From: a virus
Lineage: Duplodnaviria; Heunggongvirae; Uroviricota; Caudoviricetes
Direction: 5' to 3' (one strand)
Virus record (IMG/VR): IMGVR_UViG_2681813273_000006
Length of the DNA: 6,030 nucleotides
A program made the translations under genes and the position numbers. The notes beneath the pieces are model-generated. The model worked only from the letters and a program-made list of their open reading frames with translations, was not told where the DNA came from and searched no databases. Every line of letters begins with the position of its first letter. Positions within the stretch are counted from its first letter, which is position 1. This document shows, in pieces, positions 152-6,030 of the stretch.

Positions 152-1543
152 ATGACAACACCAGTCTGGCGTAATGATGACCTGGAAGGCGCTGTCATTG
201 GCGCATTCTTTCTGCGTGGGGCAGATCATGAAGTGATGGATATTCTGATCACACTACCGGCGGACATTTTTTCTGTACGAGCGTATCGGGATATCTACAC
301 AGGCATCTGCAGACAGGCCCGTGTTTCAGGAGTGATTGACCCCGTGCTGTTGTGTAATGAGATGCCGGAACTTGCCCCGGTGATTACTGATACCGGGCGT
401 AAAACCTGGGTGAAGTCTTCACTGGAGCACTATGTTGCAGCGTTGCGGCGCAATGCCGCACTGCGCGATGCAGAAAAAACACTGAATGAGGCGCTGCAGA
501 AATTACGTGATGCGCATACCTGTGAAGCAGCTGAAGATGCCCTGAAGGATGCGCAGAACATGATGGTCACACTGTCGACAGGAAAGGGCGTCATTCAGCC
601 GGTACATATTGATGATGTGCTTCCGGAAGTGGTTGAGCGTGTTGAATGCCGGAATCAGGGGCTGGAGAAATCCAGGACGTTGATGACCGGTATTGATGAA
701 CTGGACGCAAAAACAGGCGGTATGGAGCCCGGAGACCTGGTATTCATTGCCGCCCGTCCTTCGATGGGGAAAACCGAACTTGCGCTGGACATCATCGACA
801 AGGTGACTGAGCAGGGGCATGGTGTGCTTCTGTTCACCATGGAGATGGCGAACATCCAGATTGGTGAACGTATGGTGTCTGCGGCTGGAGGGATGCCAGT
901 ATCACGCCTGAAATCTGTGGCTCACTTTGAAGATGAAGACTGGGCGCGTTTCTCACAAGGGGTGGGGCGGATGACCGGGCGCAATATCTGGATGGTGGAC
1001 CAGGCGAACCTGACCATTGATGAGATATGCGCAACAACGAAACACCATCTGATTAAACATCCGGAAACGGCGCTGGTGGTGGTTGATTATCTCGGGCTGA
1101 TAAAAACCCGAACCACGGGGCGTCATGACCTTGCCGTGGGTGAAATCTCAAAGGGGCTTAAAGGCCTGGCAAAATCCGGTGGTTTTCCGTTGATTGCGCT
1201 GAGCCAGCTCTCCCGCGGTGTGGAGTCCAGACCCAATAAACGTCCCATGAACTCAGACCTGAAAAATTCCGGAGAAATAGAGGCGGATGCAGACATCATT
1301 CTGATGCTTTACAGGGATGAAGTGTACAACCCGGATACACAGGCTACAGGCATAGCAGAAATTAATATCACGAAACAACGTAACGGTTCTCTGGGGACGA
1401 TTTACCGGCGTTTTTATAACGGACATTTTCTGCCTGTGGACCAGGAAAGCGCACAGGTTCTTTCCACCCCAATGCGGCAGCCCCAGCCGCGCAGATACAG
1501 CAATACACGTACCGACAGCAGTAAGATGGAGCGTTTCTTTTGA
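152..1543 (+). CDS. Phage-encoded DnaB-family replicative DNA helicase (P22 gp12-like). Start could instead be the GTG at 11.
   Basis: Long ORF with recognisable DnaB motifs: Walker A-like IAARPSMGKTE, and [43 protein letters not shown] closely resembling the E. coli DnaB C-terminal region. ATG at 152 has a GAGG Shine-Dalgarno 9 nt upstream. The ORF stays open back to GTG at 11, just after an in-frame TAA at 8-10. Confidence 0.85.
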   Translation: MTTPVWRNDDLEGAVIGAFFLRGADHEVMDILITLPADIFSVRAYRDIYTGICRQARVSGVIDPVLLCNEMPELAPVITDTGRKTWVKSSLEHYVAALRRNAALRDAEKTLNEALQKLRDAHTCEAAEDALKDAQNMMVTLSTGKGVIQPVHIDDVLPEVVERVECRNQGLEKSRTLMTGIDELDAKTGGMEPGDLVFIAARPSMGKTELALDIIDKVTEQGHGVLLFTMEMANIQIGERMVSAAGGMPVSRLKSVAHFEDEDWARFSQGVGRMTGRNIWMVDQANLTIDEICATTKHHLIKHPETALVVVDYLGLIKTRTTGRHDLAVGEISKGLKGLAKSGGFPLIALSQLSRGVESRPNKRPMNSDLKNSGEIEADADIILMLYRDEVYNPDTQATGIAEINITKQRNGSLGTIYRRFYNGHFLPVDQESAQVLSTPMRQPQPRRYSNTRTDSSKMERFF

Positions 1544-1554
1544 ACAACCAGACA

Positions 1555-1647
1555 ATGACTTTTACCTCTGAACAATTGCGTAAACACGCGCAGGAAATGT
1601 TGCGACAGGCGGAACAACTGGAAAAAACAGGTGTAACAAAAGATGCC
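1555..1647 (+). CDS. 5' fragment of the small helical protein gene, cut off by the N-run; identical to 2780-2872
   Basis: ATG at 1555, 12 nt after the helicase stop. Sequence is identical to the start of the complete copy at 2780-3022 and runs into the gap at 1648. Confidence 0.5.
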
Positions 1648-1658
1648 NNNNNNNNNNN
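1648..1658. other. Assembly gap (11 N)
   Basis: Run of n characters in the sequence; sequence on either side is not collinear. Confidence 0.95.
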
Positions 1659-1682
1659 GTATTAAGACTATCACTTATTTAA

Positions 1683-1844
1683 GTGATACTGGTTGTCTGG
1701 AGATTCAGGGGGCCAGTCTACGGACATTTTCTGCCTGTGGACCAGGAAAGTGCACGGGTGCTTTCCACTCCCATGAAGCCCGGCAATCCGCGCAGATACA
1801 GTAATAAACGAACTGACAGCAGTAAGATGGAGCGTTTCTTTTGA
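1683..1844 (+). pseudogene. Helicase remnant in paralogous copy B: 53-codon in-frame ORF joining an N-terminal-proximal segment to the helicase C-terminal tail
   Basis: 1679-1720 aligns at about 70% identity to window 7-50 (TAA-GTG-ATA...). 1721-1844 aligns to the helicase 3' end 1420-1543 ([18 protein letters not shown]) in the same frame with the same stop. No internal stop codons. The roughly 1.4 kb helicase core is absent. Confidence 0.45.
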
Positions 1845-1855
1845 ACAACCAGACA

Positions 1856-2098
1856 ATGACTTTTACCCCTGAACAATTGCGTAAACACGCGCAGGAAATG
1901 CTGCGTCATGCTGAACAACTCGAAAAAACGGGCATAACAAAAGACGCTATCCGTAAAGATATGGTACCCGCGCTTCGGGAACTGATGCAGGCGAAGCATC
2001 GCGCACAGAAAGCAGTAGATGAGCTGGTGGACTGTGTGGCAGAGCTGGAAACCAGAGTCGGAAAGTTTGAAAAACTGGTGCAGGAGGTGCTGCGCTGA
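1856..2098 (+). CDS. Small alpha-helical phage protein (80 aa), copy B, function unknown
   Basis: ORF with ATG at 1856. Protein is about 92% identical to the copy at 2780-3022, with differences mostly conservative (I/V, R/K, L/M). Its stop overlaps the rusA start in a TGATG arrangement. Confidence 0.6.
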   Translation: MTFTPEQLRKHAQEMLRHAEQLEKTGITKDAIRKDMVPALRELMQAKHRAQKAVDELVDCVAELETRVGKFEKLVQEVLR

Positions 2099-2438
2099 TG
2101 CGCCATGAGTTTATTTTACCTTATCCGCCGACGGTGAATACTTACTGGCGACGTCGTGACAACACATATTTTGTATCAAAAGCCGGTGAGCGTTATCGCC
2201 GGGATGTGGCGCTTATTGTCCGTCAGCAGCGACTGAAATTAAGCCTGTCCGGAAGACTGGCGATAAAGATTATTGCAGAGCCACCGGATAAGCGCCGTCG
2301 TGACCTGGACAATATCCTGAAAGCACCACTGGATGCACTGACACATGCGGGAGTGTTAATGGACGATGAGCAGTTTGATGAAATCAATATCGTTCGTGGT
2401 CAGCCAGTATCTGGTGGACGTCTGGGGGTGAAGATTTA
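2098..2438 (+). CDS. rusA: RusA-family Holliday junction resolvase, copy B, 3' end truncated at the ambiguous base / contig join
   Basis: Translation matches RusA motifs ([41 protein letters not shown]). The ORF-track product reads through the n at 2439 into helicase-tail sequence, which is not a real protein. Confidence 0.6.
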
Positions 2439-2439
2439 N

Positions 2440-2768
2440 GCGGTGTGGAGTCCAGACCCAATAAACGTCCCATGAACTCAGACCTGAAAAATTCCGGAGA
2501 AATAGAGGCGGATGCAGACATCATTCTGATGCTTTACAGGGATGAAGTGTACAACCCGGATACACAGGCTACAGGCATAGCAGAAATTAATATCACGAAA
2601 CAACGTAACGGTTCTCTGGGGACGATTTACCGGCGTTTTTATAACGGACATTTTCTGCCTGTGGACCAGGAAAGCGCACAGGTTCTTTCCACCCCAATGC
2701 GGCAGCCCCAGCCGCGCAGATACAGCAATACACGTACCGACAGCAGTAAGATGGAGCGTTTCTTTTGA
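2440..2768 (+). pseudogene. 5'-truncated copy of the helicase C-terminal coding region; likely an assembly duplicate, not an independent gene
   Basis: Identical to helicase 1215-1543 and begins immediately after the n at 2439. The listed 2445-2768 ORF simply starts at an internal Met. Confidence 0.55.
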
Positions 2769-2872
2769 ACAACCAGACAATGACTTTTACCTCTGAACAA
2801 TTGCGTAAACACGCGCAGGAAATGTTGCGACAGGCGGAACAACTGGAAAAAACAGGTGTAACAAAAGATGCC
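2440..2872 (+). repeat. Exact 433-bp direct repeat of 1215-1647 (helicase 3' end plus start of the small ORF); probable contig overlap
   Basis: Base-by-base comparison of 1215-1647 with 2440-2872 shows identity at a constant offset of 1225. The repeat is bounded by the single n at 2439 and, in the first copy, by the N-run at 1648. Confidence 0.85.
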
Positions 2873-3022
2873 ATTCGTCGGGATATGGTGCCAGCGCTCA
2901 GGGAACTGATGCAGGCGAAACATCGCGCACAAAAAGCGGTGGATGAGCTCGTTGATTGTGTGGCAGAGCTGGAAACCAAAGTTGGAAAGTTTGAAAAAAT
3001 GGTGCAGGAGGTGCTGCGCTGA
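2780..3022 (+). CDS. Small alpha-helical phage protein (80 aa), copy A, function unknown
   Basis: ORF MTFTSEQLRKHAQEML...VQEVLR with ATG at 2780. Stop overlaps the rusA ATG (TGATG). No clear Shine-Dalgarno, so the start is uncertain (TTG at 2765 is an alternative). Confidence 0.65.
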   Translation: MTFTSEQLRKHAQEMLRQAEQLEKTGVTKDAIRRDMVPALRELMQAKHRAQKAVDELVDCVAELETKVGKFEKMVQEVLR

Positions 3023-3393
3023 TGCGCCATGAGTTTATTTTACCTTATCCGCCGACGGTGAATACTTACTGGCGACGTCGTGGCAGCACATATTTTGTAT
3101 CAAAAGTTGGTGAGCGTTATCGCCGTGATGTGACGCTAATTGTTCGCCAGCAGCGGCTGAAATTAAACCTGTCCGGAAGGCTGGCGATAAAGATTATTGC
3201 AGAGCCACCGGATAAGCGCCGTCGTGACCTGGACAATATCCTGAAAGCACCACTGGATGCGCTGACGCATGCCGGACTACTCATAGACGACGAGCAGTTT
3301 GATGAAATCAATATTGTGCGCGGTCAGCTCGTTCCTGGTGGGCGACTGGGCGTGAAGATTTATGAAATCACAGGTGATAACGATGGCGCGTGA
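3022..3393 (+). CDS. rusA: RusA-family Holliday junction resolvase (endodeoxyribonuclease RusA)
   Basis: 123-aa ORF with RusA signatures, including the acidic motif RRRDLDN and the DDEQ / GGRL region; resembles E. coli prophage RusA. AGGAGG lies 10 nt upstream of the ATG. Confidence 0.85.
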
Positions 3394-3769
3394 TATTCAG
3401 CAGGTTATGGAACGGTGGGGGGCTTGGGCTGCAAACACTCATGAAGATGTATCCTGGGCGTCGATCGCTGCTGGTTTTAAAGGGTTAATTCCGTCGAAAG
3501 TGAAATCACGCCCTCAGTGTTCTGATGATGATGCAATGATAATTTGTGGCTGTATGGCCCGGTTGAACAAGAAAAATCAGGATTTGCACGATTTGCTGGT
3601 GGATTATTACGTAGGTGGAATGACTTTTATGAGTCTGGCACGGAAACATGGGTGTTCGGATACCTGTATTGGCAAGCGCCTGCAGAAAGCGGAAGGGGTT
3701 ATTGATGGCATGTTGATGATGCTTGATATCCGGCTGGAGATGGACAGATACGTAGAACGAATTATGTAG
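3383..3769 (+). CDS. Late-gene antiterminator Q (phage 82 / DLP12 quuD-like family)
   Basis: [28 protein letters not shown]...[16 protein letters not shown]...GKRLQKAEG strongly resembles my recollection of E. coli prophage Q (QuuD-type) proteins. ATG at 3383 has an AGGTGA Shine-Dalgarno 5 nt upstream and overlaps the rusA stop. A strong promoter follows at once. Confidence 0.8.
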
Positions 3770-3773
3770 GTGC

Positions 3774-3803
3774 TTGACCAGACACATTGTCCGGGGCTAT
3801 ATT
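3774..3803 (+). promoter_or_regulatory. Sigma70 late promoter (PR'-like) immediately downstream of Q
   Basis: TTGACC (3774-3779), 18-nt spacer, TATATT (3798-3803). The position directly after the Q stop matches lambdoid late-promoter/qut architecture. A 6-bp hairpin CGCCAG/CTGGCG sits at 3811-3828 in the initial transcribed region. Confidence 0.6.
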
Positions 3804-3864
3804 CCTCACGCGCCAGCAAAATCTGGCGTCGGGATTGGAACCCCGGATAGAGACCGCGACAGAC

Positions 3865-3889
3865 ACACGCCGCGAGCGTGTTTTTTATT
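3865..3889 (+). terminator. Intrinsic terminator (tR'-like), ending a roughly 77-nt leader RNA from the late promoter
   Basis: Stem ACACGC / GCGTGT with loop CGCGA, followed by TTTTTTATT. Confidence 0.6.
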
Positions 3890-4243
3890 GTCGTATGCAC
3901 GCGCACATCTGAATTATGGTGGGGCGCATGGGGGAGCTGAAAAGCTCGCCGGTCGGTTTCCCGGTAGTTCCAACCCTGTGCGTCTCACCACCCGATGATT
4001 GGAACCTGACGGTGTTGACAGTTTCAGGTTTGCAGTTTACATTTCCCCGCGGTGCTCAAAACACCTCGAAAGCGGTATCCACACCCGATAGCCATGTGGT
4101 TTTTTTGTGTCCAGAATTCTTGGTTTATGACCGGGTGTGCGGCTAATACAATACCAGCAATGGAAATACGCCCGCCGACTTTCGACGGTTTTGAGCGCCC
4201 GGTCACCCTCTCAAAAGGGGTAAATCAAAATATTCGAAAGGAC

Positions 4244-4813
4244 ATGTCTATGAATCGCACGTCTATTGAAAAACTCCCGTCACTTACGCATAACCATCTT
4301 CCTGTCATGACAACAGAGCTGCTGGCTGATTTGTACGGAACAGAGCGCCAGCGTTTGACAAACAATTTCAATCGAAACAAAGAACGGTTTATAGAAGGTA
4401 AACATTTTTTCCTGATAGAAGGTGATGCGTTACGAGAGTTGAAGAACGAAAACTCTTTAAGAGTTTCTGTGAAAATTGCCCGTAACGTTCGCTCCCTCAT
4501 CCTCTGGACAGAACGTGGCGCAGCCCGTCACGCCAAAATGCTCGAAACCGATCAGGCGTGGGAAGTGTTCGAAAAACTGGAAGACTGTTATTTCAACCAG
4601 AAACAGCCACCAGCGGCACAAAACACATCTATCGAAAATGATGGATGCGCATTACTGAGCCACTTCGATAAACACGGTCAGGTTGAGTTCACGGAAAAGG
4701 TACCCGCCGATGCGATGGTATGTACTCTGGAACGGTTTAAATTTTATCTGGAGCAACACGGGTGGATCGTTGCCCGTAAAGAGCAACTGGTGGAGCGGTT
4801 GATGCGGTTTTAA
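4244..4813 (+). CDS. ORF6N-domain (KilA-N-related) putative DNA-binding / antirepressor-like protein; start may be ATG 4250
   Basis: N-terminal region VMTTELLADLYGTERQRLTNNFNRNKERFIEGKHFFLIEGDALRELKN ... LWTERGAARHAKML fits the ORF6N domain pattern as I recall it. AAGGA Shine-Dalgarno lies 7 nt before ATG 4250. The ORF-track extension back to 4052 has no start codon and covers leader sequence. Confidence 0.65.
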   Translation: MSMNRTSIEKLPSLTHNHLPVMTTELLADLYGTERQRLTNNFNRNKERFIEGKHFFLIEGDALRELKNENSLRVSVKIARNVRSLILWTERGAARHAKMLETDQAWEVFEKLEDCYFNQKQPPAAQNTSIENDGCALLSHFDKHGQVEFTEKVPADAMVCTLERFKFYLEQHGWIVARKEQLVERLMRF

Positions 4814-4889
4814 AAATTTTTTCCGAAAACTTTACGATCGTAAAAAGTTGAATATCCTGTTAAGAGTGGTTACTACGCCACACAGCTTA

Positions 4890-4915
4890 AACCCGCCGAT
4901 GAGCGGGTTTTTTTA
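4890..4915 (+). terminator. Intrinsic terminator downstream of the ORF6N gene
   Basis: Stem ACCCGC / GCGGGT with loop CGATGA, followed by TTTTTTTAT. Confidence 0.65.
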
Positions 4916-4964
4916 TACCTGAAAAACGGCACAGGACGTTAAACGTGCTGGTGGTCAGATGAGT

Positions 4965-4993
4965 TTGCAGATGTGATGACATATGGTTATTAT
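4965..4993 (+). promoter_or_regulatory. Sigma70-like promoter directly upstream of the tRNA cluster
   Basis: TTGCAG (4965-4970), 17-nt spacer, TATTAT (4988-4993). The first tRNA starts 10 nt downstream. Confidence 0.45.
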
Positions 4994-5002
4994 TCTGCCT
5001 CC

Positions 5003-5079
5003 GGCCCTTTAGCTCAGTTGGTCAGAGCGAGCGACTCATAATCGCCAGGTCGCTGGTTCAAGTCCAGCAAGGGCCACCA
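5003..5079 (+). tRNA. tRNA-Ile2 (anticodon CAT, lysidine type, ileX/ileZ-like); tRNA-Met not formally excluded
   Basis: Manual cloverleaf: acceptor GGCCCTT/AAGGGCC, D-arm GCTC..GAGC, anticodon loop CTCATAA, T-arm GCTGG TTCAAGT CCAGC, discriminator A plus CCA. Closely resembles E. coli ileX. Confidence 0.8.
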
Positions 5080-5080
5080 A

Positions 5081-5157
5081 CCACCACTAGCTCATCCGGA
5101 TAGAGCATCAACCTTCTAAGTTGACGGTGCGAGGTTCGAGTCCTCGGTGGTGGGCCA
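5081..5157 (+). tRNA. tRNA-Arg (anticodon TCT, reads AGA)
   Basis: Manual fold: acceptor CCACCAC/GTGGTGG, anticodon stem TCAAC/GTTGA with loop CTTCTAA, T-arm CGAGG TTCGAGT CCTCG, discriminator G plus CCA. Confidence 0.8.
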
Positions 5158-5159
5158 GC

Positions 5160-5235
<76 letters not shown>

Positions 5236-5238
5236 TAT

Positions 5239-5313
<75 letters not shown>

Positions 5314-5926
5314 GCGAGATTTGAGACGAAGGTTGTTATTTGCACTGACACAATATTGTGTGGGAATGTCTGACTCCTTACCATCTCCTGTTCTGTGATG
5401 TTGTTTTGTTGCAGTTCCAGTGCTCTTTTTTCAGCACCAGAATGGTGCATTGTCGGTCAGGTTACGTAGTGAACCTCTGGCAGGGGACTGATGATTCATC
5501 ATTCTGGTGTTGTAAATATCTCTTCGGACAACTTACAAAATATTCTAAGCAAACCCCGGGAACACACTCTTAACTGCCTTGGCTGGCGGTTTTTTGTACA
5601 GCGCTCGGTATGTGTGAGCTGGAAATCAGATTTTGCATGGACTGGAATCATGCTGTTATTTAGGGGCGAAGAACTGGCTTTTTCTTCCGCCTTCTCACCA
5701 GTAACGATTAGAAAAATAATGAAATGCCCCCCTCCGGGGAGGAGGACCGTAGAAAAAAGGACCCGCCAGCAAAAACATTGGGGATGAACAGCTTTCGCTA
5801 CTCAGATTGCTGGCGGGTAAAGTTCCTCATGAATTAAGAATGCTACGCGATCTTTTTTAATGGAAATGAAAATTATTGTCAATTAGTCGTGCGTGTTTTT
5901 TCATACAATATTGGTAAAGGTGATTC

Positions 5927-5960
5927 AGGCCATCAGAGTTTTGCTGATGGCCTTTTTTCT
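5927..5960 (+). terminator. Strong intrinsic terminator
   Basis: 10-bp perfect stem AGGCCATCAG / CTGATGGCCT with 7-nt loop AGTTTTG, followed by TTTTTT. The reverse strand lacks a T-run, so it is + strand specific. Confidence 0.75.
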
Positions 5961-6030
5961 TTCCGATAGCACAGGTCTGTCGGGGGGGTGCCCCTATTAA
6001 GTTGTCAAGCATGTTATGACCCCTGCGGGG

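Follow-up and report, generated by a model that had tools for sequence, protein, structure and literature searches.

The locus considered here raises the question of what an ORF6N-type regulatory gene is doing between the late antiterminator gene Q and a group of transfer RNA (tRNA) genes. It lies in a 6,030-nucleotide (nt) stretch of DNA from a virus of the class Caudoviricetes (IMG/VR record IMGVR_UViG_2681813273_000006), referred to below as the window. The open reading frame (ORF) in question runs from 4244 to 4813 on the + strand and has 189 codons plus a stop. An earlier note on this DNA described it as accessory cargo with its own Shine-Dalgarno (SD) sequence and terminator, and called its function unknown. 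We propose instead, with a probability of roughly 0.6, that the gene encodes an AnrP-family antirepressor-like regulator that promotes prophage derepression and induction, that its expression is gated by the antisense RNA sRNA-Xcc1 (hereafter Xcc1) with a decoy in the leader, and that a mobile regulatory module carries the gene as its payload. The protein family is already known; what is new is the tandem leader of C4 plus Xcc1, together with the proposal that Xcc1 acts as an antisense gate of the c4 type.

Q and the ORF are separated by a spacer of 475 nt with four Rfam elements (c4-a1b1, IsrK, C4 antisense RNA and sRNA-Xcc1), all of which exceed their gathering scores. The module formed by Xcc1 and the gene consists of the following features.

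4015-4043, + strand: promoter-like sequence TTGACA-17-TACATT of the Xcc1 module (promoter scan, 10/12 matches)
4050-4107, + strand: short leader RNA, an analogue of IsrK (alignments, compensatory changes in the terminator stem)
4129-4212, + strand: sRNA-Xcc1 (Rfam RF02221, 77.4 bits against a cut-off of 53, model positions 1-87)
4234-4242, + strand: site t2, UCGAAAG at 4234-4240, overlapping the SD AAAGGA at 4237-4242 (complement of the Xcc1 loop)
4250-4813, + strand: AnrP-family antirepressor-type gene, 187 amino acids (aa) (ORF, Pfam, PHROG and alignment of homologues)

The loop of the second Xcc1 hairpin, ACUUUCGA at 4178-4185, is the exact complement of two sites, t1 (UCGAAAG, 4066-4072) in the leader and t2 in front of the gene. 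Loop, t1 and t2 change together in the window, in Nil2 (loop CUACUU, with AAGUAG at both t1 and t2), in EC12 (loop CUACUG, with CAGUAG at both sites) and in three other loci. A pattern scan of IMG/VR on the constant Xcc1 core recovered 55 complete loci, all unique, in which the loop takes 37 different sequences. Complements spanning 7 nt or more adjoin the SD (t2) for 58% of cognate pairs versus 3.9% of non-cognate pairs, and lie in the upstream leader (t1) for 62% versus 5.4%. With the variants listed for the common 8-nt loops, t2 pairs over 6-8 nt, and it invariably runs into the GG of the SD. The SD reported by the earlier note is present, as AAAGGA; the note missed that this sequence is the apparent target of an antisense RNA.

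The leader is a recurrent part of the arrangement as well. A promoter-like site whose -10 element ends 22-29 nt before t1 was found at 36/46 diverse Xcc1 loci, and a run of five or more T residues follows t1 at 44/46. The leader in the window begins with a hairpin (4051-4065) that has CUCAAAA in its loop, continues with t1 and ends in a terminator hairpin with the stem CCACA/UGUGG (4079-4099) and seven T residues (4100-4106); the changes in this stem are compensatory between loci. Three blocks of the leader can pair with Xcc1 (-47 kcal/mol, z=-4.1), which fits a role of the leader as a decoy for it. All 34 diverse genes sampled behind Xcc1 have an N-terminal domain of antirepressor type (34/34: ORF6N 10, KilA-N 9, Rha 5, AntA 4, Bro-N 4, P22_AR_N 2). 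Judged from these sequence patterns, Xcc1 looks like an antisense translational repressor of the P1 c4 type that blocks the ribosome-binding site of the gene behind it. Xcc1 and C4 are alike in topology, each having an outer stem, two internal hairpins and a stem followed by a CACC(A/C) tail; cross-matching of their covariance models gave no hit at E<=0.01, and topology alone is what they have in common.

The constant Xcc1 segment UUUUGAG(C) (4189-4195) has complements in the loop of the leader hairpin, (G)CUCAAAA at 4055-4061, and directly 3' of Xcc1, CUCAAAA at 4210-4216. With this segment, Xcc1 may possess another pairing block, an invariant one that corresponds to the b'/b1/b2 sites of C4 described below.

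The isrK-C4 leader and the spread of the module

Upstream of the Xcc1 module lies a second set of RNA elements.

3774-3803, + strand: P_isrK, promoter-like sequence TTGACC-18-TATATT, a candidate PR' (promoter scan, 10/12 matches)
3797-3849, + strand: c4-a1b1 element (Rfam RF03163, 50.1 bits)
3810-3886, + strand: IsrK-like short RNA (Rfam isrK, 77.5 bits against a cut-off of 50)
3912-3995, + strand: C4 antisense RNA of the P1/P7 immI type (Rfam RF01695, 71 bits against a cut-off of 45)
3999-4005, + strand: b2 target of C4, TTGGAAC, 3 nt after C4 (covariation of b1, b' and b2)

P_isrK begins 5 nt past the Q stop codon and is kept with the module in all contexts seen. The IsrK-like RNA holds the C4 target site b1 (TTGGAAC, 3835-3841) and probably the site a1 (GAGACCG, 3850-3856), and it ends in an intrinsic terminator with a stem at 3865-3881 and a T-run (terminator scan). 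The C4 of the window is the equivalent of STnc1160/orf45 of the Salmonella prophage Gifsy-1, with b' (GTTCCAA) at 3967-3973 and the a' loop (CGGTTTC) at 3954-3960. Across a sample of 51 unique C4 loci, the 3' single-stranded segment b' has its complements in b1, which lies within IsrK, and in b2, and the three co-vary through b1/b2 variants that include TTGGAAC, TTCGAAC, TTGGCGT, TTGAGAC, TTAGGAAC, TTAGCCT and TTAGCAC. The same holds for a', the loop of the second hairpin, whose complements a1 (in IsrK) and a2 co-vary with it.

At loci that carry C4 only, a2 lies against the SD of the antirepressor gene or overlaps it. The window has kept b2, but from about 4030 onward a different segment of ~200 nt stands in place of the sequence that should bear a2 and the SD. 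With a2 lost and b2 alone kept, C4 therefore appears to be orphaned in cis, and control of the gene to have passed to Xcc1. It is possible that the orphaned C4 still acts in trans on prophages of the same specificity. The TTGGAAC/GAAACC specificity is the commonest class among the C4 loci sampled. A LexA box at 4006-4021 (CTG-N10-CAG), considered by analogy with the antirepressors of Gifsy phages that are under SOS control, was rejected, as the right half-site is TGATAG in relatives and the centre is GC-rich.

How closely the leader and the gene belong together was surveyed with 80 family members from IMG/VR phage contigs, whose upstream regions were scanned with nhmmer. The isrK and C4 elements stood directly 5' of the gene in 76/80; 12 of these 76 loci carry Xcc1 as well, like the window, and two more loci have Xcc1 alone. 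The isrK and C4 elements also precede anrP of Gifsy-1, its homologues in E. coli prophages, antA of Nil2 and ant of a Shiga toxin (Stx) 2a phage. The contexts in which the module is found include positions behind three unrelated Q types, next to integrase genes, after ninE in the nin region, and in the early-left operon. Because isrK and C4 are conserved upstream of it, the gene appears to be the payload of a mobile regulatory module rather than free-standing cargo. P_isrK is a candidate for a Q-dependent PR', with IsrK as its short terminated transcript; the spacer of P_isrK varies with the upstream gene or Q type, a pattern for which common descent could account.

In Nil2, both switches occur in series at 7911-9843, each with a gene of its own, as isrK-C4-antA followed by leader-Xcc1-antB. 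The annotators of Nil2 described one ant gene split by a 'retrotransposon'; the region looks instead like two complete antirepressor modules.

The protein and its homologues

The start codon of the gene is most likely the conserved ATG at 4250, and not the ATG at 4244 with which the ORF opens and which the earlier note had taken, 6 nt too early. Homologous loci align at 4250, nearly all of the 120 closest database proteins measure 185-188 aa, and the GGA of the SD (4240-4242) lies 7 nt from 4250 and just 1 nt from 4244; with this spacing and these homologue starts, the ATG at 4244 is an unlikely start. A longer in-frame ORF from a GTG at 4052 (253 aa) was dismissed as non-coding, since it overlaps conserved RNA elements and is broken by frame-breaking indels in relatives.

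Profile searches bear out the ORF6N domain named by the earlier note: PF10543 matches residues 15-99 over the full model length (74.4 bits against a cut-off of 27.8, E=9e-21). The protein does not match the KilA-N profile (PF04383). PHROG 2379, annotated 'anti-repressor', matches over the full length (E=3e-85). In an AlphaFold model built from 48 sequences, the N-terminal ORF6N domain (aa ~13-113) is confident, with a predicted local distance difference test (pLDDT) score of about 80-90, and its modelled fold is winged-helix-like; the linker 114-130 is disordered. For the last ~70-80 aa there is no Pfam match, in keeping with the note's description of a C-terminal domain of about 80 aa without a family. 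NCBIfam has no family for the protein, and neither Foldseek of the whole model against the PDB (E<=0.001) nor a profile search of PDB sequences gave a match. The C-terminal domain is rare, with 11 relatives among 1.8 billion cluster representatives in an exhaustive phmmer search, and is also found fused to Rha and to Ash+AntA N-termini, which argues that it is a shuffled module. We suppose that this domain probably sets partner specificity.

The protein by itself is ordinary, and its family is abundant in prophages of Escherichia, Shigella and Salmonella. Its matches at E<=1e-5 number 4660 database proteins, the closest of which is from Shigella sonnei (99% identity). Part of the module is matched in 1190/5426 complete E. 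coli genomes, with the exact mosaic in only 2, and the exact arrangement of the window was found again in several IMG/VR prophage contigs. A scan of genome contigs returned mainly distant ORF6N genes of Firmicutes, without Xcc1 or C4.

A studied full-length homologue is STM2616 of Gifsy-1, which is 49% identical over 184 of 187 aa, C-terminal domain included (E=6e-58, tblastn against phage genomes). STM2616/SL2578 corresponds to the AnrP studied by Hershko-Shalev et al. 2016 (PMC4825925). Gifsy-1 and the window share a layout of Q, PisrK/IsrK, a C4-like RNA (STnc1160/orf45), the gene and a tRNA; the annotation of Gifsy-1 places a tRNA-Arg after anrP and then the lysis genes. The Gifsy-1 locus reads antQ-isrK-orf45-anrP-isrJ, and its promoter and IsrK are homologous to those of the window despite the unrelated Q. 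Further differences are an extra Xcc1 module of ~200 nt between C4 and the gene in the window, and isrJ, which lies downstream in Gifsy-1 only. In Gifsy-1, a promoter just past antQ makes the IsrK sRNA (small RNA) and drives transcription of anrP, and read-through of the IsrK terminator gives an isrK-orf45-anrP messenger RNA (mRNA) that is translationally silent until IsrK is given in trans (PMC4825925). Expression of AnrP raised the mRNA of the antQ operon and induced Gifsy-1, independently of the isrK locus (PMC4825925). With a full-length homologue in the same layout and with this activity, the function of the gene can no longer be called unknown, as it was in the earlier note.

A second group of homologues is found among Stx phages. 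The Ant proteins of Phi24B and 2851 (ORF6N plus P22_AR_C) share the ORF6N half alone with the window protein (54-67% identity). As a group, the Stx-phage Ant proteins (Phi24B, 2851 and Nil2 antB) have the ORF6N domain and the isrK-C4 or Xcc1 leaders in common with the window; they differ from it in having P22_AR_C instead of the AnrP-type C-terminal domain and in sitting in the nin region or the early-left operon. Their role is in efficient induction (PMC3064807). The ORF6N antirepressor of Phi24B is required for full late-gene expression: after induction of an ant knock-out, a pR' reporter reached 27-56% of wild type, and superinfection was unaffected by the deletion (PMC3064807).

Proposed mechanism and rival explanations

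The leader of the window has a counterpart in the immI region of P1 (c4/icd/ant), where the antisense c4 RNA masks the ribosome-binding site ahead of ant, a mechanism reportedly described by Citron and Schuster in 1990. Like the window, the immI regions of P1 and P7 have a promoter-proximal a1/b1 motif, a C4 RNA, and upstream and downstream target sites; the antisense RNA is a processed three-way junction co-transcribed with its target, and the payload is an antirepressor. The window differs in having an ORF6N payload and no icd-type gene, and in that its C4 has no ribosome-binding-site target, so that the masking would fall to Xcc1, which belongs to a different RNA family. By analogy with P1, both C4 and Xcc1, each of which ends in a stem and CACC(A/C), may be excised in an RNase P-type manner. 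More distant parallels are P4 CI (seqA/seqC), which causes transcription termination of replication genes, and P22 sar, a true cis-antisense transcript. Both provide immunity as small phage antisense RNAs that act on their own operon (sar upon ant), as we propose for the window, and neither has a sequence match to the elements of the window. The authors of the Gifsy-1 study described IsrK as structurally similar to P4 seqA (PMC4825925).

In the mechanism that we propose, P_isrK, and probably the promoter at 4015-4043, would yield mostly short terminated RNAs, and the read-through transcripts would include C4, Xcc1 and the gene. Xcc1, in cis or once processed, would pair with t2 and block the entry of ribosomes. 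The leader, with its decoy copy of the t2 site and its other complementary stretches, would titrate Xcc1 and turn translation on, and would thereby play toward Xcc1 the part that IsrK plays toward C4 in relatives. An excess of leader RNA over Xcc1 would lift the block, as would a rise in transcription, for example if Q-modified polymerase ignores both terminators. The protein then made would reinforce derepression of its own prophage and possibly of co-resident ones. The proposal starts from the observed homology, domain content, RNA elements and three-way covariation; from these we infer the block on ribosome binding by Xcc1, the role of the leader as a decoy and the Q read-through from P_isrK, and it is the homologues that suggest an antirepressor activity of the protein.

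Several observations weigh against this proposal. P_isrK follows three unrelated Q types plus non-Q genes, which makes action of Q at this promoter a presumption. Some copies of Xcc1 reside in integron cassettes or tandem arrays with no obvious antirepressor gene. Structure prediction of the C-terminal domain, which the earlier note had put forward as a check, went part of the way: two strands and two helices were modelled for residues 131-187, but the model is weak (pLDDT 58-67) and its fold unassigned. The antirepressor for SOS induction of Gifsy-1 is said to be a different, LexA-controlled protein, GfoA. In Gifsy-1, orf45 and anrP are translationally coupled, with the stop overlapping the start (AUGA) (PMC4825925). 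Such coupling cannot operate in the window, because the Xcc1 module has been inserted and the equivalent of orf45 (ORF 3916-4146) stops about 100 nt before the ATG at 4250. Moreover, the Gifsy-1 authors attributed activation by IsrK to refolding of the mRNA and not to titration of the C4-like RNA, and co-expression of STnc1160 left toxicity unrelieved in their work (PMC4825925). The AnrP data from Gifsy-1 describe effects of overexpression, and binding of a repressor by AnrP or by the window protein is presumed by analogy. The main rival, which we regard as rather unlikely, sets repressor binding aside altogether and takes the protein for a transcription factor with sequence-specific DNA binding, one that acts directly on phage or host promoters as an activator or a repressor.

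Another explanation, and a weak one that we consider very unlikely, is that of an autonomously expressed moron, occupying the cargo position that separates Q from the lysis genes, with a host-directed or superinfection-control function apart from the phage switch. The gene does lie between Q and the tRNAs, and its ORF6N domain gives weak matches to the candidate system PDC-S05 of PADLOC (E=1e-7). It is also flanked by a promoter-like site at 4015-4043 and a terminator at 4889-4910, signals that form part of a regulated leader in which an internal terminator and an antisense RNA are present. However, the PADLOC matches are restricted to the shared N-terminal domain. The antisense RNAs that would gate expression are typical of immunity (immI) regions, every gene found behind the same leaders is antirepressor-type by homology, and the homologues act on induction, with no effect on superinfection when ant of Phi24B is deleted. 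Other phages carry the module in the nin region, beside int or in the early-left operon. Because a module with antisense RNAs recurs in several phage positions, the gene is better counted as lysis-lysogeny circuitry than as the accessory cargo of the earlier note; it travels together with a promoter and antisense RNAs of its own, as one regulatory module. The last alternative concerns Xcc1, which might be only a trans-acting sRNA with host targets, or a passive structured spacer, so that the ORF6N gene is translated constitutively from whatever transcript reaches it. Xcc1 was indeed published from Xanthomonas campestris as a trans-acting sRNA controlled by HrpG/HrpX, and Xylella fastidiosa has tandem arrays of five Xcc1 spaced about 380 nt, for which no cis target has been described, besides one Xcc1-isrK-C4 cluster (PMC12189769). 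This alternative is nevertheless hard to reconcile with the way in which loop, t1 and t2 co-vary through 37 loop variants, t2 lying in every case on the SD of the gene that follows, and with the antirepressor type of all 34 diverse genes downstream, and we consider it improbable.

We think it likely that immunity antisense RNAs of the c4-like kind have a second, widespread family in Xcc1, in which a programmable loop masks the SDs of antirepressor genes, a decoy leader acts as the trigger, and the loops define heteroimmune classes within which same-loop prophages cross-regulate each other. Xcc1 would then not be a host-directed virulence sRNA, and the window would be a two-tier case, with an orphaned C4 and an active Xcc1 behind Q. 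The Rfam family was published as virulence-linked, whereas the copy in the window stands in the 5' leader of an antirepressor gene and its cis targets co-vary with it. In the searchable literature there is no statement of Xcc1 as a c4-like antirepressor gate; a paper on APSE phage briefly mentions one Xcc1 ahead of an ORF6N gene, and apart from that mention Xcc1 is treated there as a trans-acting, virulence-associated sRNA without a mechanism. If the proposal is true, sRNA-Xcc1, read so far as a virulence sRNA of Xanthomonas and Xylella, would gain a mechanism, and the IsrK result in Gifsy-1 could be reinterpreted in terms of a c4-type RNA being titrated. The loops could then be read as 'immunity codes' that predict which co-resident prophages induce each other, and these codes would cover Stx phages that carry the same modules.

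Other features of the window

The gene upstream of the leader is a Q-type late antiterminator (3362-3769, + strand, 135 aa; Pfam PF06530, E=2.7e-52) with no sequence similarity to the Q of Gifsy-1. On the other side of the regulator gene are a terminator, which agrees with that of the earlier note, and the tRNA genes, so that the note's placement of the gene between Q and the tRNAs holds.

4889-4917, + strand: terminator-like hairpin (4889-4910) and T-run closing the module (terminator scan)
5003-5313, + strand: tRNA cluster of Met(CAT), Arg(TCT), Thr(TGT) and Gly(TCC) (ARAGORN; Rfam tRNA)

The stretch 3' of the gene (4814-4916) has this strong terminator and a single chance-level match to Trp_leader (E=0.09). 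An Rfam scan found no isrJ match 3' of the gene in the window, where the terminator sits at the position that isrJ has in Gifsy-1. Immediately 5' of the four tRNAs is a promoter-like sequence, TTTGCA-18-TATTAT at 4964-4993. Stx phages usually have Ile/Arg/Arg at the tRNA position, and the CAT tRNA of the window may be a lysidine-modified Ile tRNA (compare the annotation of Nil2). The ~700 nt past the tRNAs (5314-6030) have no ORF >100 aa and no Rfam match; in an E. coli relative, the sRNAs STnc100 and AsxR occupy the post-tRNA position.

The left half of the window has runs of N at 1648-1658 and 2439. The segment 1215-1647 is 100% identical to 2440-2872, and 1720-2438 is 89% identical to 2644-3362, with the result that an 85-aa ORF and rusA are duplicated. 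The region 1215-3362 is probably an assembly patchwork, in which two related prophage alleles were scaffolded together, and not a genuine tandem duplication.

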